Source: Naegleria gruberi
Taxonomy: Eukaryota
DNA length: 64,000 nucleotides
Assembly (NCBI GenBank): GCA_000004985.1
Contig: GG738900.1
Direction: 5' to 3' (one strand)
The position numbers and the translations under genes are program-made. Below are positions 2,154 to 56,102 of this stretch, piece after piece. Below the pieces are notes generated by a model. The model made no database searches and had not been told where the DNA came from. It saw only the letters and a list, made by a program, of their open reading frames with translations. The first letter of the stretch is position 1. Every line of letters begins with the position of its first letter.

Positions 2154-2188
2154 ATTTTACTTTTATATTCAAAATAATTACATGGGCA

Positions 2189-9642: not shown

Positions 9643-9692
9643 NNNNNNNNNNNNNNNNNNNNNNNNNNNNNNNNNNNNNNNNNNNNNNNNNN
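9643..9692. other. Assembly gap (50 N)
   Basis: Run of N between the duplication copies. Confidence 0.99.
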
Positions 9693-10146: not shown

Positions 10147-10178
10147 ATTTTACTTTTATATTCAAAATTACATGGGCA

Positions 10179-13700: not shown

Positions 13701-15341
13701 TCATGATACATTGCTAAATCTTGACTAATCATAATACCTTGAACTAATTTAGCTGCTTCAATTGAAACGTAAAGTGAAATTGGAATTAAATTTGTAAGTA
13801 GAATGAGAATTGTCCAATATCCTTTAAATCCATTCCATGCAATATATTCAGAATCAATGACAACATCACGGAATAAATACCATGCTCCAGCATTAAAATT
13901 TGTCCAAACCATCAATGCAATATCACAACTCAAAACTAAAATGATTTGAACTACTAAAACTAGTAAAATTAACTTGTTAATCATTCTTTCAATTTTACTA
14001 ATTTTGTGTGGAGTTTCTCTGTAAAAATATTAAATATATCATTAAATATCATTATTAAATATCATTATATCATTAAATATCATTATATTAATAAGAGTAT
14101 CATGTCATTAAATTTCATAATTGATAATAATAAATATATAAGAATGGTTTAAAATAAAACATACTTTGTGTTCATCATTAATTTAGTATCGTGTCCAGTG
14201 AAAATTGCAACACCAATCATAAAATCAGTATTTTTCAATGAAGATCCACGTAAACAAATTTGTTCAGTATCAATGGATAATTTCTTTCCATTACTCAATA
14301 CCATTGTACCTTCAAATTTATATAATCTATTGTTTGGTTTTTCACATTCCACAATCATTCTAGTTTTATCAAGTGCTTCAGGTGTTGAAAGTTCCAAAGT
14401 TTCATGACGACATCTCTTAATTTTTAAATTAGTTTCACTTTATATCCAAATTAATATCCAAATTAATATGAATTCAATTGATTTTCCAATTTCCAATTTA
14501 ATAAAATCAACAAGTTAATCAACATTCAATCCATAGAAATAACATACCCATCCAAACTTGAAGTTTCAACATAACATAAACCTTGTGATTCACTTGAAGA
14601 AACAAGAATTAAATCACAAGGAAATGGTTCCTTATTATCTACTTTAACAATATCACCTGTTTTTACATCTTTCCAAAATATATCCTCAAATTTGTCACCT
14701 CTCAAAACATGAGCAATTCTATTATTTGTAACTCTATCAGAATAGAGTCTTTTAATATCTTCATAAGCATCTTTAATCATTGTACAAATCAATACTATTA
14801 ATAGTCATATATTAGATTTTGTTTAGTATAATACCTCCAATATAATACTTACCAAATGCTAAAGGAAAGAATGCTGTAAATTGACCTGTTGGTGACAATG
14901 TTGGAATAGTTTGCAAAACTGCCATAAATAAAAAATCTATTTTCACAAATATTTCATCATCCATTATTCAAATATTGTACAATTATAATATTTCATCATT
15001 CAAATAAGTGATAAATCATTAAAATACTTACAACAATTTGCAAATCTATGAAATTGTTCATATAAATTCTTAAATAAAAAGTTGTAGAAAGTATATTTAG
15101 TAGTCGTTATGGAATTATCAATAAATTTGTTGGTGGCGTTTGACATTTCATCATTTGCAAATAGTAATCTAGTTTTTGTTGCATCATGTTGTTGTTGAAT
15201 ATTAAAAGTATTAAAGGCTCCAACTTCATTCCCAGTAAACATATCCGATATACTTCTATGTTGTGTTGATGGATTATTAGTACTATTATAATTAGTATTA
15301 ATTGTTGCAGAACTCATAATAGCAGTACTAGAATTTGACAT
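10794..15341 (-). CDS. Phospholipid-transporting P4-type ATPase (flippase), copy B, complete, at least 7 exons
   Basis: Exons at 15000..15341, ~14848..14930, 14526..14792, 14149..14397, 13562..13984, 12250..13575, 11755..12174 and 10794..11650. Motifs DKTGTLT, TGDKLETA, GDGSNDG and MIQSAHVGIGISGQEG…VHGRWSYRR are present. Confidence 0.85.
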
Positions 15342-16254
15342 TACTAGTGTTGTATGTTCACGAGGTGATGTTAATGATGATGGTAGTGGTAGAGTATTTT
15401 GATTATTTGATGATTCATTCGAATGGTCTACTAGGGAATTTCCATCCCTCTGTTGTTTTGTTATTATTATTATTATATAAAGATGAATATAGTAATATTA
15501 CATATTAAAATTGTTGTGTTTAGAGAATATGAAAATATACATACTGGTGTTCTGGTAAATTTGGCTTTTAATCTTTGAAACATGTTTTAAAGCCTTTTTC
15601 TTCCGAATAAATAATGTTATATGATATACTATTGTAGTTTTTGTGTTGATGATGGAGAGTGTTGATGATGGTGATGATGATAATTGTTTTGAAAACACAA
15701 GAAGAATGGATAATACTATCTACAAGTATAAAAGTGTGTTGTCCTATTCTCTATTCAAAGATAATAAAAACAATCAACAACAATAGTAATGGATAATAAA
15801 TATGTTTTTCAAAGAAGAAGGCTTTGTTTGTTTTTCTTTTAAATAACTACTTGAGTATCAAAGGTGGGAGAATCTTTTGAGCTTCCTTTAATCTTTTGGA
15901 AGCCACGGGCCAAAGTCAAGCGCTCATTTTGAGTCCGATTCAAGTGAGGCAAATAGCGCTAGTTTCTAATAGTCTACAAGAATAAATAGTCATGATACCA
16001 TTTCGGAGTCATTGGAAGGTTTAGAATAAGGGAGGAGGGAAGAATATTCTAATGTAAAAATAAGTCAAAGAACGATTTGGATTTTCAATGTATTGCAATT
16101 TGATAATATATAACTTTCTATTTGAATAATACAAGAAGCTATTAAGGATTGACTTTAAACTCTAAAAAACAAGCGCATTTATTTGCAATTTTTGAAATAT
16201 TAGAAAATTAGAGGAAAGTAACTTTGGGATAGTGTTTTTGAAACAAAAATCAGA

Positions 16255-16328
16255 TACCGACAATGGGGCTCGAACCCACGACCCCAGGATTAGAAGTCCT
16301 GTGCTCTATCCAACTGAGCTATGACGGC
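16255..16328 (-). tRNA. tRNA-Arg (anticodon UCU), copy B, canonical D-stem
   Basis: Same sequence as copy A except G22 restores the C13:G22 pair. Both copies share a T5:T68 acceptor mismatch and a G1:T72 wobble. Confidence 0.65.
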
Positions 16329-16520
16329 TTTACGTTCCTTAAGGATCAAAACATCTTACATGAAATCCTTGATATTTTTCTGTAGGCTCCATTTAGTTTA
16401 GATTGATAAGCTTTTAACGTCATGTGCCACATCATTCTTTCATAATTTTATTCAATGGGATCTATTAAATCCAAATAATAACTATGTAATAGTTACAATA
16501 AAAAAATTAAATAGTAAAAT

Positions 16521-17400
16521 ATGTCATCACAGTGTGATGATTTAACTCTTCCGAATAATCAAACCAATAAAACATTAAAAGGTTATCAATCTAAACTAAA
16601 TAAATTACAAACAATTACAAATAGTGATTTATTTGGATCCAATGATTATATTAACGGTTCAATTATTTGCATTTATTCTGATAATATTAATTATTTAATT
16701 TTAATTTTATCTAAAGATGTTAATACTATTCATGTTTTAAAATTTAATTTTGATCCAATTCATAAATTAATCACAAATATGGAAATATTTACTAAATATG
16801 CATTGAAACAGGATGTTAAACATTATCAATATTTTTATTCATTGAAATGTGAAAAATGTTTTTTAATTGCAAATATAATTAATATTCATTTATCAGAATT
16901 ATGGAAAGTTGAAATTGAAAGTGGAAATATAATTTGGAGAAAGGAAATTCATGGAATTAATTCAATTGTTCAAGATGAAAGAGGAATTTTATTTTTAAAT
17001 TCAAGTATTACTAAAAATGTGCAATTATTAGATTCCAAAACAGGAAATTGTCTTGGTAAAATTTCAATTGCATCTGGTCATAGAATTTCAAATCATATTG
17101 GATTGGATTTTAATAATAATTTACTAGTTTCTAGTTTTACTAGGAGAGGATCATATTTACAAATTATTTCTAAAAAAAGGCAACATTTCAAAAATAATAC
17201 CATGTACACAAAATACGATACTCACACTATCAGATCCATATAATAAGAAAACATTTATACTAGAATCAGGAAATCATGTTGTGGATGTTTATGATTCTGA
17301 ATATACTAAATTAGAAGTATTGAATTTCACTTCACCAATTTTTTTATTTGCTTTTGTAAATGATTGTAATTTTATAATAACAGTTGGTCCTAGGGAAATA
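16521..17400 (+). pseudogene. 297-aa hypothetical gene, copy B, with frameshift in an A-run (~17175) and downstream stop
   Basis: Copy A reads ctaaaaaagg (6 A) but copy B has 7 A. The ORF terminates at 17243 although homology continues to ~17400. Confidence 0.5.
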
Positions 17401-17471
17401 TCTTTATTTGATTAAAATCAATAAAGAAGAAGAAACCAACACTCTTGCTTATAAAGACTACATCAAACTGA

Positions 17472-17531
17472 GGATCATCATTAATAAGCGATCAATTGCT
17501 GATCTTTATTTCTCTGATTTTACTCCAAAAT
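17472..17531. repeat. 60-bp direct repeat, left copy (junction of duplication copy B)
   Basis: Identical to 19681..19740 (ggatcatcattaataagcgatcaattgctgatctttatttctctgattttactccaaaat). Confidence 0.8.
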
Positions 17532-17804
17532 GTATGTGTTATTTGCTCTAGATGCTGATAATTGTTTATAAACCTCTCGCAACTTTTGTTTTTTTTCTAC
17601 ATCCACAGTATCATCGTCTGCCCATCTACAAATTTCAGCTAACCTTTTTTTGGCTGCTTCAGATGCATTATTCACAACCATGCTCTGTGCTTCAACTAAT
17701 TCTTGTTGTAACTTTTTTTCTTTCCTCTCTTTTAGTTCTTTACGTTTGATTCTATAATACTTCTTGCTCAGCGCTTTCTTTGAATAGAGTACCATGGCAC
17801 ACAT
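17520..17804 (-). CDS. Small Lys/Glu-rich coiled-coil protein (hypothetical)
   Basis: Intact ORF of 80-94 aa. No family recognised. Confidence 0.3.
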   Translation of the reverse strand: MCAMVLYSKKALSKKYYRIKRKELKERKEKKLQQELVEAQSMVVNNASEAAKKRLAEICRWADDDTVDVEKKQKLREVYKQLSASRANNTYILE

Positions 17805-17933
17805 TTTATTACAATTTAAAAAGAGACGAGACAGAATAAACTGCTTTAAGATTCACAACTTTTATCAAAATTTCGTGAATTGAAGATGTATTCACAAGGA
17901 AACAAAGTAAACTATCAAATAGCAAAGTAAAAA

Positions 17934-18282
17934 ATGTCCAGAGGTAAACGTACTATTGATAAAACAAAGCTATACAAAGCTATCGGAGCTAGCAATAGAG
18001 GAAATTTTGGTGAATTAGTAAAGAGAAGACACTCCAGAACCAGTTCAATATATCCCAACACTTGAAGATTTGAATAATTTCTTCATTTGTGAAGACTTGG
18101 AGTTTTATTTTGATGTCAAACATGGATTAATCCAAGGTCTAGATGATGATTTTAGGGGAAGTGTAATAAGTAAAACAGAATGCCTTTTGGCTGATAATCT
18201 AAATGTCATTAAGGATGTTATTGATTCAAATTTCCTATTATCCAGCAACATTCCAACTTATTTTAATCAATATTGTTTTTAG
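17934..18282 (+). CDS. Hypothetical small protein; two overlapping frames suggest a +1 frameshift or sequencing error near 18022-18060
   Basis: ATG 17934 frame stops at ~18063. A second frame is open from 18022 to 18282. Confidence 0.2.
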
Positions 18283-19455
18283 TAAAAAATGATTTAAGAA
18301 CTTCATAAGGATCAGAATTTTTGGTATGAATTTGTTTTAAAATTGATTGGAAATTCAACTTATTAAAATTAGTCCAAAAATTTCTAGCTCCCTCTGCTTT
18401 CTTTAATCTGTTCACTGATAATATTTCTATTTTATCTTCATCAAACCAAAAACAAAAAGTTTTTAGCATTGATTCACAATCATACTCTTTCTTGTACGGT
18501 CTTATGAAAGTATTTTGATCCAAAACGCAACCTAAATAATCATCAACACAAAAAGAAATAATACCAGCAAAAAAAGTTGTCTCATTAATTGCACATGCAA
18601 AACCCCAATCAATTAATATCAATTTACCATCATCAGTCCGCATAACATTATCAGGTCTAATATCTCTGTGACAAAATCCTTTTGAATGAATATCTTTTAA
18701 AAGATCTATTAATTGAAAACACTCCCTCCTTTTGGGAAGTTGGATTTGTATAAACTTATTTGATAAAGGATGATATTTCTTCATTATCAAAATCCCATCA
18801 GAAAATAAAGTTGGTTTTGGAATGTTATCTTGATCTTTCAACAATGTATCCAATATTTTGAATTCGTGACTAATAAACCCTAAACTATCTCTATTTTTAC
18901 AAATTTTGGCAACTTTTTCATTATCTGTTCAAAAANNNNNNNNNNNNNNNNNNNNNNNNNNNNNNNNNNNNNNNNNNNNNNNNNNTTACTCAATGAATCA
19001 TAAACAACTCTGAAAATGATAATTGTATCTAATGGAGAGAGTGGAGTTCTAATGTTTGGAATGATTCTATTCTTTACATTTTTAACCCAAAATTTAACAA
19101 TACAGTCCTTAATTATTGAAATACCTGAAGGAACAGAATCTGCACCAAAGCCAATATCTTCAGCCTCAACTTTCATATTTTCATTTGATCTCAACTCTAG
19201 TAACTCCTCAATAGCAGAGGATACTCTTAAAAATATCATTTTGAGACCATCTAATGATTCTTTGGCTGGATTCTCTTTCAATACGTAATCATCTATTGTA
19301 ATTTTGAATTTTTGGAGATGATTAAAATCAATATTTAACCAAGAATTATCTTCATCATCATCGTTTCTACTTTTAACATATTGAATTAAGGATTCCAAAA
19401 TAGCTGAGAAAATGTCAGTTTCATGATAAGCATATGTGTCCGTATCATTCTCCAA
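18263..19455 (-). CDS. Protein-kinase-like / phosphotransferase-fold protein (contains 50-N gap)
   Basis: Catalytic-loop-like HRDIRPDNV and DWGFA (DFG-like) motifs in the 3' ORF. The 5' ORF is contiguous across gap 18936..18985. Confidence 0.45.
18936..18985. other. Assembly gap (50 N)
   Basis: Run of N. Confidence 0.99.
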
Positions 19456-19680
19456 GTAATAAGTAATTTGATTAGGAATAACCTCAAATTAATAAATGAA
19501 CACTGGCACTGTTGCGGTGGGTACTATCTCCAATGGATTACAGTCCAGTGGATGGTCAACTATGTACATATACTTGCATCAAAAGGAGTATTTTCAAACA
19601 TTAAAGATGAAGTATTAATATAAAATAAAGGTTCTTCAGAATTAATATCCTTTGGGTCAATATCTAAACCTTTAGTTTAA

Positions 19681-19740
19681 GGATCATCATTAATAAGCGA
19701 TCAATTGCTGATCTTTATTTCTCTGATTTTACTCCAAAAT
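19681..19740. repeat. 60-bp direct repeat, right copy (overlaps 3' end of the membrane-protein gene)
   Basis: Identical to 17472..17531. Confidence 0.8.
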
Positions 19741-20062
19741 AAGTGGCAATCAAACCACTTGCAGCAGTTAATCCAATCAAGGAAAACAACTTGCTACTAC
19801 TTTCGAATTCATTTTCTGATAAGAACAGAGTCACCAATGCAATACTGCTCAATATGTTGGCACAAGTACAACCAAAACCAGTTGGCCAACCAACACCCCA
19901 ATTCCACTGATAGGCAGCTCCAAAAAATAGACCTAACAATCCACTCGTTATTGGACAAACAATGAATGGAGATAATGTGAAAAATTTACAAGCTAGTAGG
20001 AAGGTTGGAGCCGAGAGTATTAAACCACTTCCCAAACCAAAGGCAAATGCATATGAGGTCAT
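19715..20062 (-). CDS. Small multi-pass membrane protein (115 aa, Gly-rich TM helices; TMEM14-like architecture)
   Basis: Three to four hydrophobic segments with GxxxG-like motifs. Fragments of this gene recur at 9400..9642 and 17472..17531. Confidence 0.45.
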   Translation of the reverse strand: MTSYAFAFGLGSGLILSAPTFLLACKFFTLSPFIVCPITSGLLGLFFGAAYQWNWGVGWPTGFGCTCANILSSIALVTLFLSENEFESSSKLFSLIGLTAASGLIATYFGVKSEK

Positions 20063-21777: not shown

Positions 21778-22655
21778 TTTGTTAGTGGTGGTATTGATAC
21801 TATTATTTGTTGGGATACAATAATCAAATGCTTGATTAGGTAGTGGGATTGGGATTTTGGTAGAGGTAAAAAATTTAGCGATTTTGGGGTTTTTTGTCGT
21901 TGCGACTTTTTTTCTTCGTTTCGTTGATTATTAGCTAGCTTCAATATCGAACTTGATTATTAATAGACTCGTTTTAAAAATAACTCAAAGAGAAAATTTG
22001 TCTTCAGCTTTCAACGCCAAGTACAAGGCTTGTTCCAGCCCGTTACAAAATCTGCGTTGACTGGTCTAAAAATAAAGAACCAATGAAAAATTGAGAGCGC
22101 CAAAAATTGAGTGGACAGGTAAGTAACTGCTCAAACTCGAAATGCCACTTTACAGCAGAAAAAATATTTTCTTTCATTTTCTCTCTGCAGAGCAATATTT
22201 TACAACCAAAATTTTAATTTGGACAAATGCCATTTTCAAACCCATTACTTCTAATATTTTCACAAGCATTTCAAGAATGAGATTTTTTCTGATACAAAGA
22301 AAAAGAAAGAAGCATGTGTGAAATTGGAATGAAAATAGCTGAACAGCATGAAAACATGTGAATAAGGGAGGATTAAATTGTGTGCGGATGAGCTGTGGAG
22401 AGGAGCGAACAACAGCACAGAGGACATTCCAAATACACATGTGTTATCCTCCTAAACAATACACATGTTCACTAATAGTAAGAGATACATCATGTGCGTC
22501 CTTAATATTCCTTATGAGAGTAGTAGTAACATTTTGTCCTCAAAGGATTTTGTGGAAGAGGGAATTGAGTCTCTCTAAATATGAAGCCTTCCAGTTTGTA
22601 TTTGTATCAGAAATTTAACAACTATCGATAAGTATTCCTTAATTTAAGTATATGA

Positions 22656-22775
22656 ATGGCTACGGCCATATCACGATGAATGCACCTCATCCCGTCCGAT
22701 TTGAGAAGTTAAGCATCGTCGAGCCACATCAGTACTGAGGTTGGAGACAACTTGGGAACCTGTGGTGCTGTAGTC
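22656..22775 (+). rRNA. 5S ribosomal RNA gene, copy 1
   Basis: 120 nt. Terminal helix I GGCUACGG/CUGUAGUC. Internal box A AAGTTAAGC. Conserved CAUCCCGUCCGAU and GGUUGGAGACAAC…GGGAAC…GGUGCUGUA. Followed by a TTTTT Pol III terminator. Confidence 0.8.
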
Positions 22776-22953
22776 TTTTTACCTTAATAACTTTTAATAA
22801 CTTGAGTGTTAAAAACTGGAGAAGTTTTCACATTCACTTTAATTTCTCACCAAAACAGACTATCTTTCATGTGAGACATCACAAAAGTACTGTTTTCATA
22901 TTTTTGGAAATTTTCTAAATTGGGAAACCATTGTTTTCATTAATACGAAAAAA

Positions 22954-37342: not shown

Positions 37343-37432
37343 TAATTTATAATAATAAAGAATTTAATTGAAACTCTCTAGGTATCCCAACAACATCCAA
37401 ACAAAACACAAACAGATATATACCACTAACAG

Positions 37433-37778
37433 TCCATTAAGGATAAATATTCATAATGAATGTATTCCCGTGTAGTCCAATGGCTAGGATACCTGGCTTT
37501 CACCCAGGAGGTCCGGGTTCAATTCCCGGCATGGGAGAATACTTTTTAATGTTGATAAAACCAATTTTATTTGGTATTGATTAAGGAATTTGGAGAATAA
37601 TTTTTCCAACAGTTCTATTGGATTCACTCATTTTTTGAGCTTGTGAGGCTTGATCCAAACTTAGAATATGAATTGGAATGTCTTTCCATAAACCACTTTC
37701 ACTCAACCACTTTAAGATAACTGCCAATTGATCACCATCCCTTTCAGCATACAAATTTTTGGCTCTTTCACTTCCAAA
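37433..37778. repeat. Source copy of tRNA-Glu plus oxidoreductase-3'-end duplicated segment
   Basis: Matches 40901..41289 at about 97%. Confidence 0.8.
37466..37537 (+). tRNA. tRNA-Glu (anticodon UUC), copy 1
   Basis: TCCCGTG…GTCCAATGGCTAGGAT…CCTGG-CTTTCAC-CCAGG…GGTTCAATTCC…CATGGGA-G. Clean cloverleaf. Confidence 0.85.
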
Positions 37779-38621
37779 AACCTTTCCAGAAATTCCTTGA
37801 GGTGTGTGAACAATTGTAACAAATTGTGATTCTTCATCTTGTTTGAGCAATTCAATGGAATAGTATTCTTGATAGGATCCAACAAAATCCAACACTATAT
37901 CAAAGGTACCTTTCAAAGATTCCAATTCATGAGTGAGATATTCCTTTCCCTTAGTGTAATCTAACACTTGATCAGCTCCCAACTTTCTAACAAAGTCTGC
38001 ATTCTTTGCTGATGAAATGGTAACAATCTTTTCAGCATTGAAATAATTCTTGGCAAGTAAAATACCTGACATTCCAACACCACCACTTCCACCAATGATT
38101 AGAACTTGTTTTCCTCTCAAGGAGTCTTTTTGTCCACTCTTACTTGATGGATGTCTGAGGAAACATTGAAAAGCAGTCAAGAAAGTTACTGGACACGAGG
38201 CAGCAACTTGATGACTAATTGATTCTGGATTAAGAGCTGCTTGAGATTCAGAGCAGACAACATATTGACTGTATGTTCCTCTGATGTGTGTCATGTTACA
38301 ACCACAAACTGAATCACCAATCTTGAATTTGGTTACTTTGGAACCAGTGGCAACTACAATTCCACTAACTATTCGAAGGTAAGAATGAAAAATATTAAAC
38401 TTACAATCAACTCCAAGAATCGTTGGATATGAATTAATATAAAACCCATATTGTCTTACTTTACAATCTAATGGATTAACTCCAGCATATTGATTTCTAA
38501 CAAGAATGTCATCTTCATTCAATTGTGGTAAATCAAATTTATGGTCAATTACAATGTCATCAGCACTGACATTGGCAGATTTAATAATTGCAGCAGTTTG
38601 AAAGGTTGGAAGACTTGACAT
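37581..38621 (-). CDS. Zinc-type/MDR-superfamily NAD(P)-dependent oxidoreductase (quinone oxidoreductase-like), one intron ~38372..38412
   Basis: Rossmann GGSGGVG motif, MDR catalytic-domain layout, GTAAGT intron. Confidence 0.65.
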   Translation of the reverse strand: MSSLPTFQTAAIIKSANVSADDIVIDHKFDLPQLNEDDILVRNQYAGVNPLDCKVRQYGFYINSYPTILGVDCKFNIFHSYLRIVSGIVVATGSKVTKFKIGDSVCGCNMTHIRGTYSQYVVCSESQAALNPESISHQVAASCPVTFLTAFQCFLRHPSSKSGQKDSLRGKQVLIIGGSGGVGMSGILLAKNYFNAEKIVTISSAKNADFVRKLGADQVLDYTKGKEYLTHELESLKGTFDIVLDFVGSYQEYYSIELLKQDEESQFVTIVHTPQGISGKVFGSERAKNLYAERDGDQLAVILKWLSESGLWKDIPIHILSLDQASQAQKMSESNRTVGKIILQIP

Positions 38622-39009: not shown

Positions 39010-40698
39010 TTGAAGGAATATTGTAAGAAACGTGATGAAATATTAAACAAAAGACCAGAATTTATTCCATTGGAGTTTTATCGGGATTGTCAAGTGTTGG
39101 TTAAATATCCACATTTATTGGAGAATTTGCTGATTACAACGGATAGGGAATTTATTTTGTATTTTGTTAGATCGAGGGATGATCACATTCATTCAGTTTG
39201 TAGAGCTATTTCAGATACTTTGAAATGTGATGAATTATTTATTAGACAAGCCATTCAAGCTAATTATCAAATGTTTAAAGTTCTTCTTGAAAAACGTAAT
39301 CAAGACTACAACAGAAAAAGAACAAGCAAGATACGTAGAGGTCGATTCAAAGACGAGGGAAGTGATGACTCTGGAGATGAGGATAATATATCAATTGACT
39401 GGGAGTATTTCATTAATTTGAATCCAAAAGTTCTAAGATTTGTCAAAAATAGATGGAAAGAGTTGGATAGAGAAGTAGTTTTACAAGCTTTGCGAAAAGA
39501 TATTATAGCAATTTATTCATTGCAAGCTCTTGACAGAGAAATGGCATTGTTGGTAGTTGAAACCAATCCATTGGCTTTGAAATATGAACATGGAGTTTGG
39601 CAGAATGATAAAGAAATTGTACTGAAAGCAATATCACAAAATAAGAACCTACTTGTGTATGCATGTGATTCGATCATTGAAGAAGTGTTAAGAAACAGAG
39701 AACTCATTGAATATTCTCAGGAGGATGTCATTAATTTAGTATTGAATGGTGTGAAGGAAAAGCCATCTTTATTCAATTACCTTCCCGAACATATGAAAAC
39801 AAATCATGAATTTGTTATCAAATTGGTAGAATTGGACACAAGAATATCCGAGTTCATTCCAGAATCTTTAAAACAAAACAGAGAATTTCTAATGGAACTG
39901 GTCAAATATGATAGAAATGCATTTTACAATTGTAAAGATATGGATCTGAGGGGGAGTAGACAATTTTTATTGAACGCCCTATCCACTTACAGGTTCTCAC
40001 TCTCCAGTGCTCCATCTCATCTCAAAGATGATAAGGAATTTGTAATGGAATGTTTAACTGCATATCCTGCAGACTTGGATGAAGCTTCATCTCGTTTGAG
40101 AGATGATGAACAAGTGGTAGAATTGGTTTTAAAAGAATTTAATAACGCATCAAATAGATTGAAAGATGATAAGGACTTTGTAATGAAACACATTGAAGAA
40201 TTTCCTCAAATGTATCAGTCATTGAGTCAGAGATTGAAAAGCGATAAGGAAATAATTCTAAAATGTGCATCTGGAGGTGGAGTTATTTCAAATGGTTATT
40301 TCTTTCACGACGATGACTTTGTATTAGAATTGGTGGAAAGAAATGCTCATATTGTTGAAACACTGGGAAAGATAACGCCAGAGTTTGCTAAGAAATGTAT
40401 TGAGCGAAATGGCTTTTGCTACCATTTATTGAAACAACACTCTATGGTAACAGAATCTGACGAATTGGATCAATTAGCAGCTCTTTCTCGTGGATATTTA
40501 GCTGATAAACATACTGAGGATATTAGACCAACATATGGATTTCACAAAATCAAAACTCGCACAAGCTATGAGGATAGAGAAATTGTGGATTCATGGATTA
40601 AGAAGAGATTGGAGAAGCAATATGATGGGTTATATATTTCACTCAGCTCGCCAATATTTGTAAAGGGAAAGTTTGTGAATACCCACATTAAGGGATGA
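39010..40698 (+). CDS. DUF4116-repeat protein (start codon uncertain; ORF begins with TTG)
   Basis: At least 7 tandem ~30-aa repeats of the form LKxDKEFVMxxV…. Confidence 0.5.
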   Translation: MKEYCKKRDEILNKRPEFIPLEFYRDCQVLVKYPHLLENLLITTDREFILYFVRSRDDHIHSVCRAISDTLKCDELFIRQAIQANYQMFKVLLEKRNQDYNRKRTSKIRRGRFKDEGSDDSGDEDNISIDWEYFINLNPKVLRFVKNRWKELDREVVLQALRKDIIAIYSLQALDREMALLVVETNPLALKYEHGVWQNDKEIVLKAISQNKNLLVYACDSIIEEVLRNRELIEYSQEDVINLVLNGVKEKPSLFNYLPEHMKTNHEFVIKLVELDTRISEFIPESLKQNREFLMELVKYDRNAFYNCKDMDLRGSRQFLLNALSTYRFSLSSAPSHLKDDKEFVMECLTAYPADLDEASSRLRDDEQVVELVLKEFNNASNRLKDDKDFVMKHIEEFPQMYQSLSQRLKSDKEIILKCASGGGVISNGYFFHDDDFVLELVERNAHIVETLGKITPEFAKKCIERNGFCYHLLKQHSMVTESDELDQLAALSRGYLADKHTEDIRPTYGFHKIKTRTSYEDREIVDSWIKKRLEKQYDGLYISLSSPIFVKGKFVNTHIKG

Positions 40699-40900
40699 TT
40701 ACCCATTATGTGAAACCTTACTAATTTGAATTTGTCTTTATTTTGGATAAAGTATTGAAACTAGGAAGCTCAGCAAACTTCAACACTCTTCTTTTTATAA
40801 TTTTTAAAATGTATGCAATAATGTAGCAAGTACATGATATTTATGAAATTATAATTCCAATTTTCATTATTATTAGTAATTATTCCCATTTCTTTATTTG

Positions 40901-41289
40901 TCCATTAAGGATAAATTTTCAAAATAAATGTATTCCCGTGTAGTCCAATGGCTAGGATACCTGGCTTTCACCCAGGAGGTCCGGGTTCAATTCCCGGCAT
41001 GGGAGAATACTTTTTTAATTATGGACTTTTAATATTGTTAAAAATTAATTTTATGTTACCACATGAGGTATTGAATAATTTAGAATTTGCATTAAGGAAT
41101 GTGGAGAATGATCTTTCCAACAGTTCTATTGGATTCACTCATTTTTTGAGCTTGTGAGGCTTGATCCAAACTTAGAATGTGAATTGGGATGTCTTTCCAT
41201 AAACCACTTTCACTCAACCACTTTAAGATAATTGCCAATTGATCACCATCCCTTTCAGCATACAAATTTTTGGCTCTTTCACTTCCAAA
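40901..41289. repeat. Duplicated segment: tRNA-Glu plus truncated 3' end of oxidoreductase gene
   Basis: Collinear with 37433..37778. Has a 45-bp insertion after the tRNA. Ends abruptly at 41290. Confidence 0.8.
40934..41005 (+). tRNA. tRNA-Glu (anticodon UUC), copy 2
   Basis: Identical to copy 1. Confidence 0.85.
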
Positions 41290-41301
41290 CAATTTCAACA
41301 A
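41092..41301 (-). pseudogene. Truncated copy of the oxidoreductase C-terminus (last ~65 aa)
   Basis: Translation FGSERAKNLYAERDGDQLAIILKWLSESGLWKDIPIHILSLDQASQAQKMSESNRTVGKIILHIP differs from the parent in 2 residues. No upstream exons. Confidence 0.65.
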
Positions 41302-41365
41302 AAATCTATGAGCCTTTTCTTGTCACATTAATAAAAATCTGCCATGTTGTTCAATTAACCACAAT

Positions 41366-42187
41366 TTAATAACACTCATCGTCAGGATAATCCACAATTC
41401 CATACATGAGAATATTGGAATAATCACAATTTATAACAACAGAATCCATTACTTCCTTTTCCATTTGCTTTTTCGTTTCCTCTGCTTGTTTACGATACAA
41501 TTTAGCTTTTTCTTTACCCACCTCAAAGGTTGCTACGCACATTGATTCATAATCCATGTCAGATACATGGTTACGCTCAACAAGCTTTGAGTATAGATGC
41601 TTATCAGTCCTATAGATGTATTCCACAATTTTGCTTCTACATGGTTTTGCATGTTTCGAAATATCTGTGTGGGTATCGGTTGAGATCAGATTCATGTCGT
41701 TAGATATTGGGCCAACAATTGAAAGAACTACAAACGAGGATAAATCATTGTAAAAAGCCATGTCCATAGTAAGAATCACATTCTTGTTTGTTTTCAATTC
41801 ATAGGTTGTTCTTGTAACGCTAAAACAAAATGAATACCCTTTCGAATGGATAAGAAATTCTAAATTTTTGCACATGTTGGACTTTTGGCACTCTTTCCTC
41901 TTGTAATTCAAGGTTTGGTTACACTTTGTGGTATGTTTGAGCGAAATTTGAGGCTCCTTAGAATAGGTTGTTTTTTCCTTCAGCCAGTAATTTTGTTCCA
42001 TTAAAACATATTCTGATAAATCATAAAAAGTTTCATTGTAGGATGTTTTTGATTTGAATGTAAACAGAGGAAGAAGACTTTTTTCTAACTGCTCCTTGCC
42101 CATAATAAAGTTGAATTTTGTAATGATTGCACTGTCGTGGGCAACATGATCTAATAAACAATCTTGATATACGAATCTTGTGTTCAA
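41366..42187 (-). CDS. Hypothetical 273-aa protein (orphan)
   Basis: Intact ORF. No recognisable domain. Confidence 0.35.
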   Translation of the reverse strand: MNTRFVYQDCLLDHVAHDSAIITKFNFIMGKEQLEKSLLPLFTFKSKTSYNETFYDLSEYVLMEQNYWLKEKTTYSKEPQISLKHTTKCNQTLNYKRKECQKSNMCKNLEFLIHSKGYSFCFSVTRTTYELKTNKNVILTMDMAFYNDLSSFVVLSIVGPISNDMNLISTDTHTDISKHAKPCRSKIVEYIYRTDKHLYSKLVERNHVSDMDYESMCVATFEVGKEKAKLYRKQAEETKKQMEKEVMDSVVINCDYSNILMYGIVDYPDDECY

Positions 42188-42220
42188 TGTATGATTGTTT
42201 AAAAGTTATTAAGGTAAAAA

Positions 42221-42340
42221 GACTACAGCACCACAGGTTCCCAAGTTGTCTCCAACCTCAGTACTGATGTGGCTCGACGATGCTTACCTTCTCAAATCGG
42301 ACGGGATGAGATGCATTCATCGTGATATGGCCGTAGCCAT
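42221..42340 (-). rRNA. 5S ribosomal RNA gene, copy 2 (two substitutions relative to copies 1 and 3)
   Basis: Reverse complement matches copy 1 except C>T and T>G. Shares a 21-bp 3' flank (TTTTTACCTTAATAACTTTTA) with copy 1. Confidence 0.75.
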
Positions 42341-42428
42341 TCATTTATTTAAGTTCTGAGTCATAAATCTTTAAGCAACAGTTAGGATTGTAAGGAATAT
42401 ATTTTAATCAAGATTTTGGTTTGTTCTT

Positions 42429-42508
42429 CACTATGAACATGCTTGACTCACAACGTTGATCACAGCTAAGCCATTGTGAAAATAATTGAGTCAAGCATGT
42501 TCATAGTG
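42429..42508. repeat. Perfect 22-bp inverted repeat (stem) with 36-nt loop
   Basis: cactatgaacatgcttgactca … tgagtcaagcatgttcatagtg. Each arm is followed by CAACGTTG. Confidence 0.7.
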
Positions 42509-42741
42509 ATCAACGTTGTGCAGGATGTAATAGTTAAAGTTCATACTTTGCTCAAAATGGGAAGTTACTACCCTTAATAAGACCAATTTAAAAGAAAACA
42601 TTCATGTTCAATTTAGGAACTTTTAGAATTTTGACTTATTTTATTATCATCCACAAAGAAACCATTGTGCCAGCTCTTGTTGGTGCTAAATATGCTTGAT
42701 TTGGGTTATGTAAATTTCAAAGTGCAGAACATTTGAAAAAA

Positions 42742-45700
42742 ATGCTGAAAAACAGCATAACAGTAGATTTGAGCGGTAAGGACGGAGAAGATGGTCATCA
42801 AGGCAAGAGGTAAGAGTACATACCTCAATTTTTTTGATGTTAATATGTTGCCGAATTAGTGGACGTAATGGTGAAGTGGGAAAGGTAATGTTTCTAATCT
42901 CCCTTAATCATCATAAAATCACTGTTGTAAAATAGTCAGGGAAAAGTGGACAAATATCTGCCTTAAATAATGGAAATGGAAGTCATGGAGAACCAGGAGG
43001 ACCGTAAGTATATATTGCTGGAGTGAAATTAGCCATGTGTTAATAGAGGTGGAGATGGAGAGAATGGTGGAAAGTAAGTTCTAGCTGTTATTGAGTACTT
43101 GACCTTATTTAATATTCCTTCTCAACAACAGTGGAAAAAAGGGGCAACACGCAACAGCTGGTGGAAATATTTAAGTAAAAATTGAGGGATCCAATCACAA
43201 GTTAATCACTTTGAGTGGAAGTATCAATGATTCTGTGTGTTTGAATGATGGTGCTGGACAAGTTTTGGTGTTTCTGGCGAATGGTGGAAATGGTGGAAAG
43301 TGAGTATCAGTGTAGCTTTGATTTGAAGTGCTTACAATTATAGAGGTGGACGTGGAGGACCAGGTGGTAAGTTGCTGAATAGCAAACACGACTGAGAATG
43401 TAATTCATTCAGGAATGGGGGGAGTCGGCGGAAAAGGAGGAACTGGAGCAAGAGGTGGTAATGGTAGCTCTGGAGGTAATGGTATGAATGGTCAAGATGG
43501 TGGCAATGGAGGAAAGTAAGTATTGAATGATTGAGACAATTTTGAAACTAATAATTATTTCAGTGGTGGCGTGTAAGGAGAAATACAAGTTTAGTTAGTT
43601 GATTGAAATTTAGTGCTGGAAAAGGAGGAAATGGTGGAGAGTAAGTTTTAATAATTGGTTGGAAATTCATATGTGCGTTTAACAAGTGGAGGGGAAGGAT
43701 CCAAGTAGGTTTTTCAATTATTACAACTATTTTAATGTGGAATAGTGGTGGAAATGGTGGAAATGGAGGAAGTATTCTTATTGAAACAAATAATGCTTCC
43801 TTGTTGAAGTTTGTCAAAGCAGAAAGTCAACCAGGTAAAGGAGGAATGGATGGAAAAGGTGGCTCTGCAGGAAGTGCAGGTAAAGGAGGAGAGAAAGGAC
43901 CTGGAGGACCTGGTGGTAGAGGTGGTGCAGGAGGAGCTGCAATGGGAAGAGGAATAATCAATACAAGATCTGGATCCAATGGAAGGAATGGATCAGATGG
44001 AAAATCTGGACAAAAAGGTCAAGAAGGAAGGAAGGGAAATCCAGGACACACTGGACAAGATGGTACACCAGGAAATTTAACCATTAGAGTCTATGATCCT
44101 CTTACTAATCAACTTGTGGAGGAAGGTCATTCAATTTATAATTTGGTGGTAACAACATTCGAATTGTGTGGCTATGAAAATGATGGAATTTTTGAACCAG
44201 ATGAAAATGTCTTTATTACCAACGTTGGTGTTAAGAATCAAGGAGGATTGACATTACCATCAGGTTCAGTTCTCTCATTTCCAAGCACTCAAACATTTAT
44301 TTCAAACGGTGAATGTTATGTTTTGGAGAAGAATTTGGCACCAGGCGAATTCTTTTCAATTCCTTTCCAATTTTATGGTCGAGTTGTTGGAAGGAAACAA
44401 AAACAATTTGGCCCTTTCAAGTCAACAATTAGCATTCAATCAAGTGCTTGTCTGTTAACTTCTCCATTTAGTGAAGGTTTTGTTAAGAAGGAATATCCAG
44501 TTCAGTATCCAATAGTATTGGAAAGTGTGAAAGTTCCTAAAAGTTTGGGAAGAAATGAAAAAGGAACAGTTACAATCACCGTAAAGAATCAATCTCTTAT
44601 CAATTATGGCTCTTCATTGGGTGATGGATACAGAATTAAGTTTTGTTTAACTCTGGATTCAACGTATATCATTCTAACAGAAACAAGCGCAACTAATATA
44701 TTTGAAGAGGAAATTCCCTTCATCCAAGCAGGAATGTCATACTCTAGAACGTTTAACATTGAAACAACTATCAATGCCCAATTCTATGAAACCATTCCAA
44801 TTCAAACAAATTTATTTTTGAGAGGACATCCTATTGAGGAATCATTGAACTCCATTCGTATTCAACCAACATACATTCCAACTAATCTCGATTCTCCAAA
44901 TCCTTTCGATGTGCTCTTCTTCTCAGATAAGCACATTAATAGGCAGGAATTTTCAAATTACATGTCCCTGCTTGGTAGAATAGGATTGAACGTGAATGTA
45001 TGGGATATTGAGAGATACGGTGGACTATCTTATAATAATAAGGGTAAGAGACATACAAAATCATGGATTGATGGTGGTTATGAAGGTAAAATGATAATAA
45101 TGCCTCTTATGGAACAAGGCTCTGAAAAACAAATGGCTGTCTCAGATATTTTCCAACATTTCAGGGGCAAAAATTGGCAAAATGATTCATCAAAACCAAA
45201 CAATGGATCTATCGTTTTTATCGGTAACCCTTCTGATTCATTCAAAAGTCAACTCTTTGGCGAATGCTCAGCCCAACAAATCCCAGAATCTGAACTAAGA
45301 GAAATGTTTCTGCTTTCTGAACCGAATGAAAGCTCAATGCTTAAGAAAGCAACAGAGTTTATTAAATCCCTCAATAAGACACATCCATCAAGGGTTTATA
45401 GAACTGAAAATGTGTTATTCAATCCTCAAAAAGATGGCTCATTATCAAAAACTTTATTAGGATCAGCTGATTATAAGGAATTACCCTTAAGCACTGCTGA
45501 TGCTTTATATTTCATTCCAACAAAGAGTGGAAACTCTTCTGGATTCATGAACGGAGGTATTACACTTCAAATTGAAAGCAAATCAAATATTGGAAAATTG
45601 CTTAACACTATTCTATATTCACTTCCTGTTGAGAAAAAATTGGAATTGTTAAGGAAACCAACCGAATGGCTTTCCAAAGTTCAAATTAAGGATGAAAATG

Positions 45701-45960
45701 GTGATTTACTTAATTATGTAACTTGTATTATCTTTGCTCTAAGCTTTAATCTGTTTTTGGAAATAATTTACAACGATGAAAATGGAAGATTTTCAACGGG
45801 TATTGAAGCAGATTTTGAAGCACATTTTGATGAATATAAGAATCATCCTCAATCCAAACAAATTGTTGAAACTCTATATTTGGTATTAAAGAAACTTGGC
45901 AGTGAATTAAAATGGAGAGGAACATCGGTACCTAGCATTAAGGAAAGGAAAAACCTATGA
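42742..45960 (+). CDS. Collagen-like / Gly-rich repeat protein with C-terminal globular region; ~10 micro-exons then a 2.2 kb terminal exon
   Basis: Exon 1 encodes MLKNSITVDLSGKDGEDGHQGKRG… (GXY). Repeated GGNGGNGG(K) and GXY tracts (GRNGSDGKSGQKGQEGRKGNPGHTGQDGTPG) in tiny exons are separated by 50-90 nt GTAAGT..AG introns. Exon boundaries are approximate. Confidence 0.5.
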
Positions 45961-47060: not shown

Positions 47061-50000
47061 ATGAATCACAAAGGTTTTGCATTGCTTCTTGTGTTAACAT
47101 GTCTGTTGTTTATTACCATTCATCCAATAATGACTAGTGAACAAATTATTCGAAACCTTGCCGGTCAAGGAATATGTGATGGTCATTTATCAACAAATGC
47201 ACCAGTCAATCCCAGTGATTGTGCCTTTTTGGATGAAGAAATGTTAATTGCAGATGCCACTAATCATAGAATTCGTAAAGTTTTCACAAATGGAACAATT
47301 GTAACCATAGCTGGAAATGGATTTGCTGGTTACAATGGAGATGGTTTAGATGCAACAAGTGCTCAATTGAACAATCCAGTTGGCATTTATGTTGATACCA
47401 ATAGTAGAGAAGTTTACATTGCTGATTCTAATAATCATCGAATTCGTAAAATATTACAGAATGGAAAAATTACAACAATTGCTGGAACAGGAATTGCTGG
47501 CTACAATGGAGATGACAAAAGTGCAGACAGTGCCCAATTGAACACCCCAAGTGGAATTGTTATTGATCCAAATAATGGAGAAATTTTCATTTCAGATTCT
47601 AAAAATCACAGAATTCGTAAAATTTTACAAAATGGTAAAATTACAACAATTGCTGGAACTGGAGAAGCTGGTTACAATGGAGATGGAATTGAGGCAAAGT
47701 TTGCAAAATTGTATCTACCAAACGGAATTGATTTGTATGAGAAAGAGTTGTTTATTGCTGATCAAAATAATCATAGAATTCGTAAAGTTTCGCTTGATAC
47801 TGGACTAATTTCAACTATTGCTGGAAATGGAAATTCAGGTTACAATGGAGATAACATTCTGGCAACAAACTGTAAATTGAGTTTACCTGCAGGAGTTAGA
47901 TACGATTCGAAAAGAAGAGAAGTTTACATTGCTGATTCCAACAACCAAAGAATTCGTAAAATATTAGAAAGTGGAATAATTGTAACAATTGCTGGAACAG
48001 GAGAAGCTGGATTTGATAATATTCTCAATGCTACCCAATCAAAGGTTAATCATCCTAATAGTGTTACTTTGAACGAATTAGGGGAAGTTTTCATTTCAGA
48101 TTCACAAAATTATCGAGTACGAAAGATTACAACAGAAAGTGGAATAATTACAACAATTGTAGGAAATGGATTTGAAAAGTATTGCACAGATTTAGCTAGT
48201 AACACACCATTGTTTTATCCTCGTGGTATAATTTCGAATGAAAATGGAGAATTTTTCTATGCCGATTCTAGCAACCATTGTATTCGAAAAATTCTGACAA
48301 ATGGTACAATTCTTACAATTGCTGGAACAGGTACTAAGGGTTACAATGGAGATGGAATTGAAGCAACAAGTGCTCAATTAAATACTCCTCACGATGTTGC
48401 ATTAAACTTGGCAACTGGCGAGATTTACATTGCAGATACGGAAAATAATAGAATAAGAAAAATTTTGACAAATGGTACAATTACAACAATTGCAGGAACT
48501 GGAGATTATGGATACAATGGAGATGGAATCATGGCTGTAGATGCATGGTTGAATGAACCGAGTGGTGTTGAAATTGATTCCACTAGCGGTGAAGTTTTCT
48601 TTTCTGATACTGAAAATTTCAGAATTCGAAGAGTTTCGAATAGTGGAATAATTACAACAATTGCAGGAACTGGAAAATCAAAATTTAATGGAGATGGTAT
48701 GGCAACAGACACGAATCTTGCTACTCCAACTGAAATTCAATACGTTCCAAGTACTACTGAAATTTATTTTGCTGATTCTGGAAATAATAGAATTAGAAAA
48801 TTTACTATAAATGGAATGATGACAACTATTGCTGGAACAAGCACAAGTGGATATAATGGTGATAATATGCCTGCAACACGTGCTTGGTTGAATTTTCCAG
48901 TTGGTGTAACATACGATCCAAAAACCAATCAAGTTTATATTGCCGATTTATCTAATCACAGAATTAGAAAAATTCTGACAAATGGTACAATTACAACCAT
49001 TGCTGGAACAGGAAAAGGAGGTTATAATGGTAATAACTTGACAGCCTTATCCACTCAAGTGAATGGACCTCATGGAATGATACTACAACCGAATGGTGAT
49101 GTAATCTTTTCAGATAGCACCAATAATGTCATTAGAATTATCAGATCTGATCAAATTTATTGTAATGGAACATTGTCAAGTGATTTGAATGTTTGTAATG
49201 GTCGTGGTTGGTGCATGGAGAGTGGAAAATGCTCTTGTCAAGACGGATGGATTGGTGATTATTGTTCAGAGCCAACATGTGAAAATGATTGTTATGGACA
49301 TGGAAGATGTGTTTCGAATAATACATGTGAATGTGAATATGGTTGGGATGGAAACTCTCACTGTTCTCAATTTTCATGTGGTGGATTGAATAATTGTAAC
49401 TCGAATGGTTTATGTGTTTCGAATAATACTTGCAGTTGCCAATCAGGATGGGCTGGAACTGATTGTTCTCAATTTACTTGTTCTGGCGCTAGCAATTGTT
49501 CAGATCATGGTTCCTGCATTTCGAATAATACTTGTCATTGCAATTCTGGTTGGAAAGGAAATGCCCAATGTTCCCAATTTACTTGTGAACTCACAAATGA
49601 TTGTTCGAATCATGGCTTGTGTGTTTCGAATAATACTTGTCAATGTAGTTCAGGTTGGAATTTCATTAATTGTTCCATCAAAGAATGTCTCATTTCAATT
49701 GTTTCAGGTTCAAGAGAATTGATATGTGGAAATGATAATTCTTCTGGTCAACTGAAAACATTTAGCAGAATAACGACTCCAGTAATTGAAACAACAAGTT
49801 TCGAATTGAATGAAAATCAACATGTAAATGTTGATATTGGATCAAGAATAATGAATTTGGATCTATCTCAAGACAAGTATTTCATAACCTCTTCATGGAC
49901 CAATTCGAATAATTTATTCTTTACCAATGTTTCCAATTTACTAATTCAAAACTCAGGTTCATCACTTATTCAAGCAGAACTTTCAACAAAAATCAAGTAT

Positions 50001-55780: not shown

Positions 55781-55856
55781 TTTTTTAAATGGCAGTACTC
55801 TATGAATCAACATTGATTTACCTAATAAAAAACCTTTATTTTTGAATTGTCAAAAA

Positions 55857-55976
55857 GACTACAGCACCACAGGTTCCCAAGTTGTCTCCAACCTCAGTAC
55901 TGATGTGGCTCGACGATGCTTAACTTCTCAAATCGGACGGGATGAGGTGCATTCATCGTGATATGGCCGTAGCCAT
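55857..55976 (-). rRNA. 5S ribosomal RNA gene, copy 3 (identical to copy 1)
   Basis: Reverse complement is identical to 22656..22775. Has its own flanks and a T-run terminator. Confidence 0.8.
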
Positions 55977-56102
55977 TCATTTTCTTAATTTGTGATATAT
56001 AAAACATCTTCTTAAAATCTTAATGTTGAATAAGTCAATGAATTCTTTGTTCGCACACAGAATAGTAACTTTCAAATTCCGCTAAAAATTAGAACAAAAA
56101 AA

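Follow-up and report, generated by a model that had tools for sequence, protein, structure and literature searches.

The block at 40.9-42.6 kb considered here lies in the spacer between a DUF4116 gene and a DUF7932 gene in the nuclear genome of Naegleria gruberi. The product of the DUF4116 ORF is 100% identical to an N. gruberi protein, and on this match a dictyostelid origin, which AT-richness, Asn-rich repeats and NHL/EGF genes had at first suggested, was rejected. It lies within a 64-kb stretch of DNA that was analyzed as a whole (the window). A first-pass annotation had listed a tRNA gene copy, a gene fragment, an open reading frame (ORF), a 5S rRNA gene and a hairpin in this spacer, and all five were located where it had placed them, with some corrections to what they are. 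The features of the block, together with their relatives elsewhere in the window, are as follows.

22658-22776, plus strand: 5S rRNA copy 1 (105.4 bits)
37432..37778, unstranded: parent of a duplicated patch, running from 33 bp upstream of tRNA-Glu(UUC) through that gene and a 42-bp spacer to the end of an oxidoreductase gene (last 65 codons and stop)
37465-37538, plus strand: tRNA-Glu(UUC), parent (ARAGORN; Rfam, 67 bits)
37581-38621, minus strand: complete oxidoreductase gene, Zn-ADH-like, 346 aa
40900..41289, unstranded: derived copy of the patch, in direct orientation and 3468 bp downstream of the parent
40933..41006, plus strand: tRNA-Glu(UUC), copy (ARAGORN; Rfam, 67 bits)
41092..41301, minus strand: oxidoreductase relic ORF, Zn-dependent alcohol-dehydrogenase-like, with the C-terminal 65 codons and stop homologous to the complete gene
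41366..42187, minus strand: ORF of 273 codons, predicted CYTH/triphosphate-tunnel (ThTPase-like) protein, from open frame, family profile and predicted fold
42199..42355, minus strand: 5S unit common to copies 1 and 2 (copy 1: 22641-22797), 97% identical
42220..42338, minus strand: 5S rRNA copy 2 (Rfam RF00001, 98.5 bits)
42423..42520, unstranded: interleaved inverted repeats, lying between the 5S and DUF7932 genes
42428-42450 / 42487-42509: IR-A, 23 bp perfect, or 28 bp with two mismatches
42449-42463 / 42506-42520: IR-B, 15 bp perfect, around two copies of the palindrome CAACGTTG
55856-55974, minus strand: 5S rRNA copy 3 (105.4 bits)

Both ARAGORN and Rfam fold the tRNA-Glu genes into a cloverleaf with a UUC anticodon. 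The two genes are identical at 74 of 74 positions and a T6 run follows the copy, so this copy is presumably functional. The oxidoreductase relic next to it differs from the complete gene by two non-synonymous and four synonymous changes in the shared C-terminal codons. It has no start, and because the N-terminal domain is missing, it is certainly non-functional. The tRNA gene and the gene fragment had been regarded as two secondary copies. Copies they are, but not separate ones: the tRNA gene and the oxidoreductase end adjoin in the parent locus, and parent and copy are collinear, which identifies the pair, at the level of sequence, as a single direct duplication of ~350-390 bp. Parent and copy share 344 of 359 aligned nucleotides (15 mismatches; 96% over the aligned segments), with 43 extra bp in the tRNA-to-CDS spacer of the copy. 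The left edge of the copy is sharp, while the right edge decays between 41289 and 41312. Two collinear copies of high identity, one of them with a truncated part of a gene, are what is found in a local segmental duplication. The patch resembles known short-range segmental duplications in its direct orientation, the distance of 3.5 kb between copies, the identity of ~96% and the start-less piece of coding sequence, and it differs from them in being very small (~0.35-0.39 kb).

We infer that one event at the DNA level copied ~350 bp, comprising tRNA-Glu and the oxidoreductase 3' end, and that the copy came to lie 3.5 kb downstream in the same orientation. This could have occurred through a tandem duplication of ~3.5 kb followed by deletion, or through a templated patch laid down in break repair; neither microhomology nor a target-site duplication is evident at the patch junctions, which therefore do not decide the mechanism. 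The tRNA copy would have been kept identical and probably works, with the co-copied gene end as dead cargo. Further local duplications are present in the window (a tandem repeat of ~8 kb and a 115-nt repeat), and they are also seen at loci of N. lovaniensis and Willaertia.

The 5S rRNA gene of the block matches model positions 1-120 of RF00001 with one non-canonical pair, at a score well above the gathering score of 38. Across the gene, copies 1 and 3 have the same sequence, from which copy 2 departs by two substitutions. Through one of these, pair 25-53 changes from G-U to a G-G mismatch; the other falls in an unpaired position. That this is the sole diverged copy, as initially reported, thus holds for the 64-kb window, and its sequence suggests that it may be a decaying or variant copy. 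The unit of ~157 bp consists of a 17-bp promoter-like upstream flank (TTAAATAAATGAAT), the gene and a 21-bp 3' flank with two T-runs; the 3' flank includes ACCTTAATAACTTTTAA. The upstream A/T box is kept in all three copies of the window. N. gruberi has 279 dispersed 5S genes on many scaffolds, unlinked to the rDNA and preceded by a TATA box (PMC3369914; Table S1). With ~279 copies scattered genome-wide, an intergenic 5S gene is nothing unusual in this organism. Copy 2 fits this family in its full-length match to RF00001, its A/T-rich upstream box, its T-run terminators, its single occurrence in a short spacer and its location off the rDNA plasmid; it departs from it in the two substitutions relative to the two identical window copies. 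The unit appears to be self-contained, with its own upstream A/T box, T-run terminators and, presumably, the internal control region described for N. gruberi 5S genes (PMC3369914), and it abuts the 5' end of the 273-codon ORF.

On the other side of the 5S gene, the inverted repeats are arranged in the order A-B...A'-B'. The perfect repeat of 22 bp noticed earlier is present and extends to 23 bp. As DNA, the hairpin folds at -27.4 kcal/mol (z = -6.6), and none of 200 shuffles was as stable, so it is statistically real. Assignment to a MITE or foldback element, or to a known RNA, was considered and rejected: there is no second copy in the 64-kb window, no target-site duplication flanks the hairpin, and Rfam yields at best generic miRNA-precursor models, whose scores of 20-23 bits fall short of the gathering scores of 90-144. 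The inverted repeat would rather stand alone in the promoter-side spacer, without an assigned function.

The largest feature of the block is the ORF at 41366-42187. At local base composition, the chance of so long an open frame is ~3e-10. Its codon usage is native-like (r = 0.73), with a GC3 of 0.36 compared with 0.21-0.30 in the adjoining genes. The frame opens within the 3' flank of the 5S unit and its first ATG is codon 29 (42103), past beta strand 1 of the predicted fold. A search upstream across the 5S gene for an exon that could supply the start codon found neither an ATG nor an exon, and no protein matching the product was found in collections that hold other N. gruberi proteins. The ORF would be a pseudogene of very recent origin, or else a gene that is unannotated and whose start is unsettled.

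The first-pass annotation had described the product as an orphan of 273 residues with no recognizable domain and had proposed a protein search. A word-indexed search indeed gave nothing, and exhaustive phmmer was needed to detect relatives. These number 29 and come from N. gruberi, N. lovaniensis, Willaertia and metagenomes; among them is a close N. gruberi paralogue, P0026 (NAEGRDRAFT_76361), which is 81% identical and lies on a 16-kb scaffold. No locus encoding a relative was confirmed when metagenomes were scanned. By itself the ORF stays below the Pfam CYTH threshold and has no Pfam or PHROG match. Its family profile, however, matches solved thiamine triphosphatases at E 6e-5, and the ORF is 32% identical to P0042 (E 5e-16 pairwise, 1.5e-7 library-wide), a protein that itself matches Pfam CYTH at 2e-14. 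Modeled from the single sequence, the AlphaFold prediction was unusable (pLDDT 34), which was remedied by supplying the family alignment (AF2; pLDDT 88.6, pTM 0.84). In a Foldseek search of the PDB with this model, the top 30 matches were ThTPase, archaeal, plant or bacterial TTMs, or CYTH cyclases (E 3e-9 to 1e-5), with ThTPase as the best (E 3e-9). Modeling thus identifies the product as a divergent CYTH/triphosphate-tunnel protein nearest to thiamine triphosphatase, and both the description as an orphan and that of a domain-less protein fall away.

Two features expected of the CYTH superfamily are found, namely a predicted tunnel-shaped beta-barrel and sequence similarity to true members; the third, ExExK on beta strand 1 together with acidic metal ligands on a later strand, is absent. 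Beta strand 1, AIITKFNFIM, contains neither an acidic residue nor ExExK. The strand that aligns to GEVE in ThTPase and to ECE in P0042 reads LSI(V), with the acidic ExE gone. The basic residues matching WL(K/R), S-x-K and the R of V-x-R-T-x-Y are kept, as are all fold elements and the family-invariant PCRSKI motif, and a C-terminal helical extension ends in an acidic tail. Compared with the superfamily (PF01928; PDB 3TVL, 5A65, 7NS9), the ORF therefore shares the predicted barrel tunnel, significant profile and pairwise similarity and the retained basic residues, and differs in lacking ExExK and the second acidic strand, in scoring below the Pfam threshold and in the C-terminal extension. Going by its sequences, the heterolobosean family to which the ORF belongs (Naegleria, Willaertia) lacks the catalytic ExExK motif, and metal-dependent triphosphatase catalysis by the ORF product is unlikely. 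We propose that the family derived from ThTPase-type CYTH proteins by losing the metal-binding ExExK and ExE residues. Given this loss, it would probably be non-catalytic, a phosphate- or ligand-binding protein or a scaffold.

Such a fate has a parallel in Jhc1, a ThTPase-derived pseudoenzyme at the ciliary tip of non-mammalian vertebrates in which ExExK has been lost (bioRxiv 10.64898/2026.02.04.703868). Like the Naegleria family, Jhc1 combines a ThTPase-like fold with the absence of ExExK and sets a precedent for non-enzymatic reuse. Unlike it, Jhc1 is an independent lineage restricted to vertebrates. The shared superfamily is all that is claimed, and a ciliary role is not implied for the Naegleria proteins. 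Naegleria also forms flagella.

Loci of three homologues, in Willaertia, N. lovaniensis and an environmental contig (L001, L002 and L003), were compared with the window. None has an adjacent 5S or tRNA gene, and on these three loci the idea that the ORF family goes with Pol III genes was discarded. A shared neighborhood of CYTH and NHL-repeat genes in L003 and the window was likewise set aside as probably coincidental, since NHL-repeat genes seem to be multi-copy in the examined loci and orientation and spacing differ. At the N. lovaniensis locus, the homologue lies near an orphan copy of ~310 bp from the 3' end of a neighboring gene. This might hint at a process common to the N. lovaniensis and N. 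gruberi loci. Taken to its extreme, such a process would have ExExK-less ThTPase-like heterolobosean genes travel with or provoke short-range duplication, leaving orphan 3'-end copies of 300-400 bp at ~3.5-3.9 kb from their source, with the 5S unit and the interleaved hairpin marking junctions. We consider this highly improbable; if true, it would amount to an undescribed type of eukaryotic rearrangement module.

The reading that we prefer, with a probability of about 0.7, is that the block is normal, slightly worn N. gruberi intergenic DNA in which there is no discrete element. The five supposed secondary copies reduce to about 2-3 independent rearrangement events. With four tRNA and three 5S genes in 64 kb, a tRNA gene and a 5S gene come to lie within 1.31 kb of each other in 39% of random placements, and the density of Pol III genes in the block is therefore not above chance. 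Three observations run counter to this ordinary reading. Damaged copies are suggestively concentrated, with an ORF lacking its start, a truncated gene and a variant 5S gene all inside 1.3 kb. The 273-codon ORF is intact although the adjoining oxidoreductase relic has decayed. Finally, the orphan 3'-end copy near the N. lovaniensis homologue could hint at a common process.

The block had also been suggested to be a locus that captures ectopic sequence. Past rearrangement is borne out by the copy of ~390 bp taken from 3.5 kb away with its dead gene fragment and by the start-less ORF at the 5S unit, but the high density of secondary copies is not (about 2-3 events; P ~0.39). In its stronger form, this idea would make the DUF4116-DUF7932 spacer a fragile site of recurrent breakage and repair, where Pol III genes or the inverted repeat perhaps stall replication and where tRNA/oxidoreductase, 5S and CYTH-like patches were taken up. 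In yeast, tRNA and 5S genes are replication-fork barriers, a strong inverted repeat adjoins, and a distance of 1.3 kb takes in at least two junction-type lesions (the isolated gene fragment and the start-less ORF abutting the 5S flank). A hotspot is nonetheless unlikely in view of the small number of independent events and of a tRNA-5S distance expected by chance, and the similar local duplications elsewhere in the window and at other heterolobosean loci suggest a genome-wide background. The opposite view, that the arrangement is ancient, stable and functional, would have the ORF expressed from a non-AUG start or from Met29, the 5S and tRNA genes active and the hairpin regulating the divergent 5S/DUF7932 promoter region. 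The long open frame with its native-like codon usage, the retention of every fold element and of PCRSKI, the tRNA copy identical to its parent and the 5S upstream box conserved in three copies agree with it. We regard it as quite improbable because a start at Met29 would remove strand 1 of the barrel, the ORF protein is unmatched where other N. gruberi proteins are present, its GC3 exceeds that of the adjoining genes and the oxidoreductase fragment beside it is dead.

The remnant of a composite mobile element was a further suggestion. On this reading, the ORF and the 5S gene would have been carried by the element, with the hairpin as its terminal repeat and the host fragments as mobilized sequence. 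The TIR-like arms of the hairpin, the close paralogue P0026 and the position of the N. lovaniensis homologue between direct repeats of ~310 bp could be taken to favor it. The evidence from the block itself does not sustain it. The ORF encodes a predicted CYTH-fold protein and neither a transposase, an integrase nor a reverse transcriptase, and none of these was found in the block by Pfam, PHROG or the fold of its ORF. A repeat search and self-BLAST over 40.5-43.8 kb revealed no terminal direct or inverted repeats bounding the block, target-site duplications are absent at both the hairpin and the duplicated patch, and hairpin and ORF are each single-copy within the window. Furthermore, the homologous loci lack the neighboring 5S and tRNA genes, and in N. 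lovaniensis the topology of the orphan repeat is different. The block recalls elements that target Pol III genes (Dictyostelium TRE/DGLT-A, yeast Ty1/Ty3) and MITEs in that an inverted repeat, along with additional sequence, is found ~90 bp upstream of such a gene. This likeness is positional only: no transposase, reverse transcriptase or integrase is encoded, target-site duplications are absent and the window contains no further copy. A mobile origin is very hard to credit.

Reading the block as ordinary intergenic DNA mainly guards against over-interpretation. In the normal landscape of the N. gruberi genome, 5S and tRNA genes are dispersed and short local duplications occur, so finding secondary copies close together does not by itself point to a mobile element. 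Within this landscape, the patch offers a clean case of a tRNA gene duplicate arising together with a dead piece of its neighbor. The ORF, in turn, is apparently an unannotated member of a heterolobosean ThTPase-like family, which, with Jhc1 as a precedent, is a candidate pseudoenzyme family.

The first-pass annotation had suggested that the block at 40.9-42.6 kb could be a recombination hotspot or the remnant of a composite mobile element. All five items on which that reading was built are present in the block at the coordinates claimed: a tRNA-Glu copy, an oxidoreductase fragment, a 273-codon ORF, a second 5S rRNA gene and an inverted repeat. The window as a whole belongs to the nuclear genome of the amoeboflagellate Naegleria gruberi. 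It holds seven Pol III genes (four tRNA and three 5S rRNA genes), and its G+C content lies at 30-37% across most of its length. The first ~20 kb (1-20000) is markedly more AT-rich, at 17-30% G+C against 30-37% at 20000-64000, and contains Asn/Ser-codon microsatellite-like repeats.

Pol III genes and neighbouring coding sequences in the window
8178 and 16255, tRNA-Arg(UCU)
22658 (+), 5S rRNA, copy 1
37465 and 40933, tRNA-Glu(UUC)
37581-38621 (-), complete Zn-ADH-like oxidoreductase gene (Pfam ADH_N + ADH_zinc_N)
39010-40698, ORF with 100% identity to NCBI 'predicted protein [Naegleria gruberi]', encoded on a 312-kb scaffold
41366-42187 (-), 273-codon ORF
42220 (-), 5S rRNA, copy 2
55856 (-), 5S rRNA, copy 3

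At the parent locus, 42 bp separate the oxidoreductase stop codon from the tRNA-Glu gene. The stretch 37432-37778 recurs at 40900-41289, collinear and in direct orientation, with 344 of 359 aligned positions identical and a tRNA-to-CDS spacer 43 bases longer in the copy. On the left the copy ends abruptly, 33 bp ahead of the tRNA, and on the right the homology fades at 41289-41312. Both tRNA-Glu genes are identical in sequence, with a T-run after each. The copied oxidoreductase piece comprises the last 65 codons only, with two non-synonymous and four synonymous differences, and cannot be functional. The items had been counted as five secondary copies; given this collinearity, the tRNA copy and the gene fragment are a single event, and with the two merged the block represents some two to three independent historical events. 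Neither microhomology nor a target-site duplication can be seen at the junctions. The copy may have arisen through a 3.47-kb tandem duplication followed by a later deletion, or a templated patch could have been laid down during break repair.

In N. gruberi, 279 putative 5S genes are found on many scaffolds, unlinked to the rDNA unit, and both an internal control region and a TATA box upstream are described for them (PMC3369914, Table S1 for the gene count). All three window copies carry the box TTAA(A/G)(A/T)A(A/T)ATGAAT directly upstream; this shared A/T-rich element of 14-15 nt ends in ATGAAT and abuts +1 (units at 22641-22797, 42199-42355 and 55852-56003). Between copies 1 and 2 the common sequence extends to 21 bp on the downstream side, where there are two T-runs, and the shared flanks suggest a subfamily of ~157-bp 5S units. 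A lone 5S unit set in a short spacer is thus the usual arrangement in this genome. Copy 2 is, as had been noted, the only diverged one: copies 1 and 3 have one and the same gene sequence, from which copy 2 departs by two substitutions, one of which turns the G-U pair 25-53 of the Rfam alignment into a G-G mismatch while the other falls on an unpaired position. Its Rfam score is 98.5 bits versus 105.4, where the gathering score is 38.

The inverted repeat, previously given as 22 bp, is also real, and measures 23 bp when perfect and 28 bp when two mismatches are allowed. It is upstream of both neighbouring genes, ~90 bp from the 5S start and ~220 bp from the first ATG (42742) of a DUF7932 gene. 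Its stability as DNA exceeds that of all 200 shuffles (z = -6.6), and as RNA it reaches -47 kcal/mol (z = -6.6). Two inverted repeats are in fact interleaved in the order A-B...A'-B', the second being centred on two copies of the palindrome CAACGTTG. This order cannot be accommodated by a single simple extended hairpin; a putative template-switch mutation or paired protein-binding sites could lie behind it. The repeat is without a target-site duplication and has no second copy in the window, and against Rfam the hairpin gave generic miRNA-precursor-like matches, all below threshold. The window has a second instance of such a repeat close to the upstream side of Pol III genes, at 8316-8534 and 16391-16601, ~65 bp upstream from either tRNA-Arg gene (arms of 30-34 bp, 93-94% complementary, spacer of 151 nt), with no sequence kinship to the 42.4-kb hairpin. 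The adjacent DUF7932/Gly-rich gene (42742-45960) is multi-exon, with short G/N-rich exons of GNGGNGG-type repeats, GTAAGT introns and a last exon of 741 codons that encodes the DUF7932 domain and shows weak collagen-repeat similarity; the strong GC skew at 42-44 kb is due to this G/N-rich gene.

The 273-codon ORF had been described as an orphan with no recognisable domain, a description that did not survive deeper searching. Pfam, PHROGs and a word-indexed protein search returned no match. When 1.84 billion representatives were searched exhaustively with phmmer, 29 relatives emerged at E < 1e-3, among them the N. gruberi proteins P0026, P0030 and P0055, one protein from N. lovaniensis, one from Willaertia magna, and metagenomic sequences. 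P0026, the closest paralogue, is 81% identical over residues 143-273. Another of the relatives, P0042, has a Pfam CYTH match at 2e-14 and shares 32% identity with the ORF over 185 residues (pairwise E 5e-16), and the family profile matches the solved human and mouse thiamine triphosphatases (ThTPases) at E 6e-5. AlphaFold2 with the family alignment predicted a CYTH fold (pLDDT 88.6, pTM 0.84), for which the top Foldseek matches in the PDB were thiamine triphosphatases (E 3e-9), followed by archaeal, plant and bacterial triphosphate tunnel metalloenzymes. Beta strand 1 (AIITKFNFIM) is without the catalytic ExExK motif and without any acidic residue; the strand aligned to ThTPase GEVE reads LSI(V). 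Several basic tunnel residues and the invariant PCRSKI motif are retained. Across the heterolobosean family, which includes at least three annotated N. gruberi members besides the ORF, PCRSKI is invariant, ExExK is absent, the N-terminus has an FPxxLL region and the C-terminal tail is acidic. From the fold evidence and the lost catalytic residues we infer a non-catalytic derivative of the CYTH fold, a candidate pseudoenzyme. A search of a literature library found no paper tying CYTH or thiamine triphosphatase to Naegleria. By analogy, and with no membership claimed, the ORF may be likened to Jhc1, a ThTPase-derived pseudoenzyme of vertebrate cilia (bioRxiv 10.64898/2026.02.04.703868).

The open frame of this copy, 273 codons long, has a chance probability of ~3e-10, and its codon usage is native-like, with GC3 somewhat above that of neighbouring genes. 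The frame opens right after a TAA within the 21-bp 3' flank common to 5S copies 1 and 2; no ATG lies upstream of codon 29, and no plausible upstream exon was found beyond the 5S gene. A start at Met29 would remove beta strand 1 of the model. Collections holding other N. gruberi proteins returned none matching this ORF, and the annotation of P0026 covers the C-terminal half only. We read the ORF as a copy that was disabled very recently or else as a gene that the annotation missed and whose start is not obvious.

Local copying is seen elsewhere. A ~8-kb tandem repeat (1713-17417; 90-100% identity, period ~7990-8077 bp) includes both tRNA-Arg genes and N gaps at 3935-6129 and 9643-9692, and could be a true tandem repeat or a two-haplotype assembly artefact. 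An isolated 115-nt direct repeat (9499-9613 and 19807-19921) is 97% identical at a distance of 10.3 kb. The N. lovaniensis and Willaertia loci holding ORF homologues contain partial gene duplicates 2-4 kb apart, and together these duplications fit a background process. At the N. lovaniensis locus (PYSW02000014.1), a ~310-bp direct repeat (7488-7799 and 11417-11682) flanks the homologue (9798-10650), its left member being an orphan 3'-end copy of the neighbouring Cys/Met-metabolism PLP enzyme (Cys_Met_Meta_PP) gene, which the annotation treats as a 128-aa gene of its own. The topology differs, the homologue lying inside the repeat pair there and the ORF outside it here, and nothing else is common to the two loci. 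We treat the parallel as coincidence in a type of genome that readily undergoes short-range duplication; a deeper connection is very improbable. Reading through that CYTH-like gene requires two frame changes, near 9990 and 10550, so either it is a pseudogene or the assembly has homopolymer errors in it; the 190-aa protein given in the annotation is a fragment. In the window, the gene at 47196-49700 has some ten NHL-type repeats of 171 nt and, after them, four Cys-rich EGF-like repeats of ~105 nt; NHL-repeat genes adjoin the CYTH-like homologue on an environmental Logan contig too (4992-7593), probably a coincidence of a multi-copy family.

The clustering of copies had prompted the suggestion of a hotspot or composite element. 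When four tRNA and three 5S genes are scattered at random and uniformly over 64 kb, 39% of the placements bring a tRNA and a 5S gene to within 1.31 kb of each other. The block encodes no transposase, integrase or reverse transcriptase, and no direct or inverted repeats were found bounding it. At the Willaertia, N. lovaniensis and Logan loci no 5S or tRNA gene adjoins the ORF homologue, the closest tRNA on the Logan contig being 6.7 kb off. The observed features are confirmed, and the reading of them as a hotspot or mobile element is only weakly supported. For the block as a whole the best reading is ordinary intergenic DNA of N. gruberi with a small local duplication, a dispersed 5S gene, a start-less ThTPase-like ORF and an unexplained inverted repeat.
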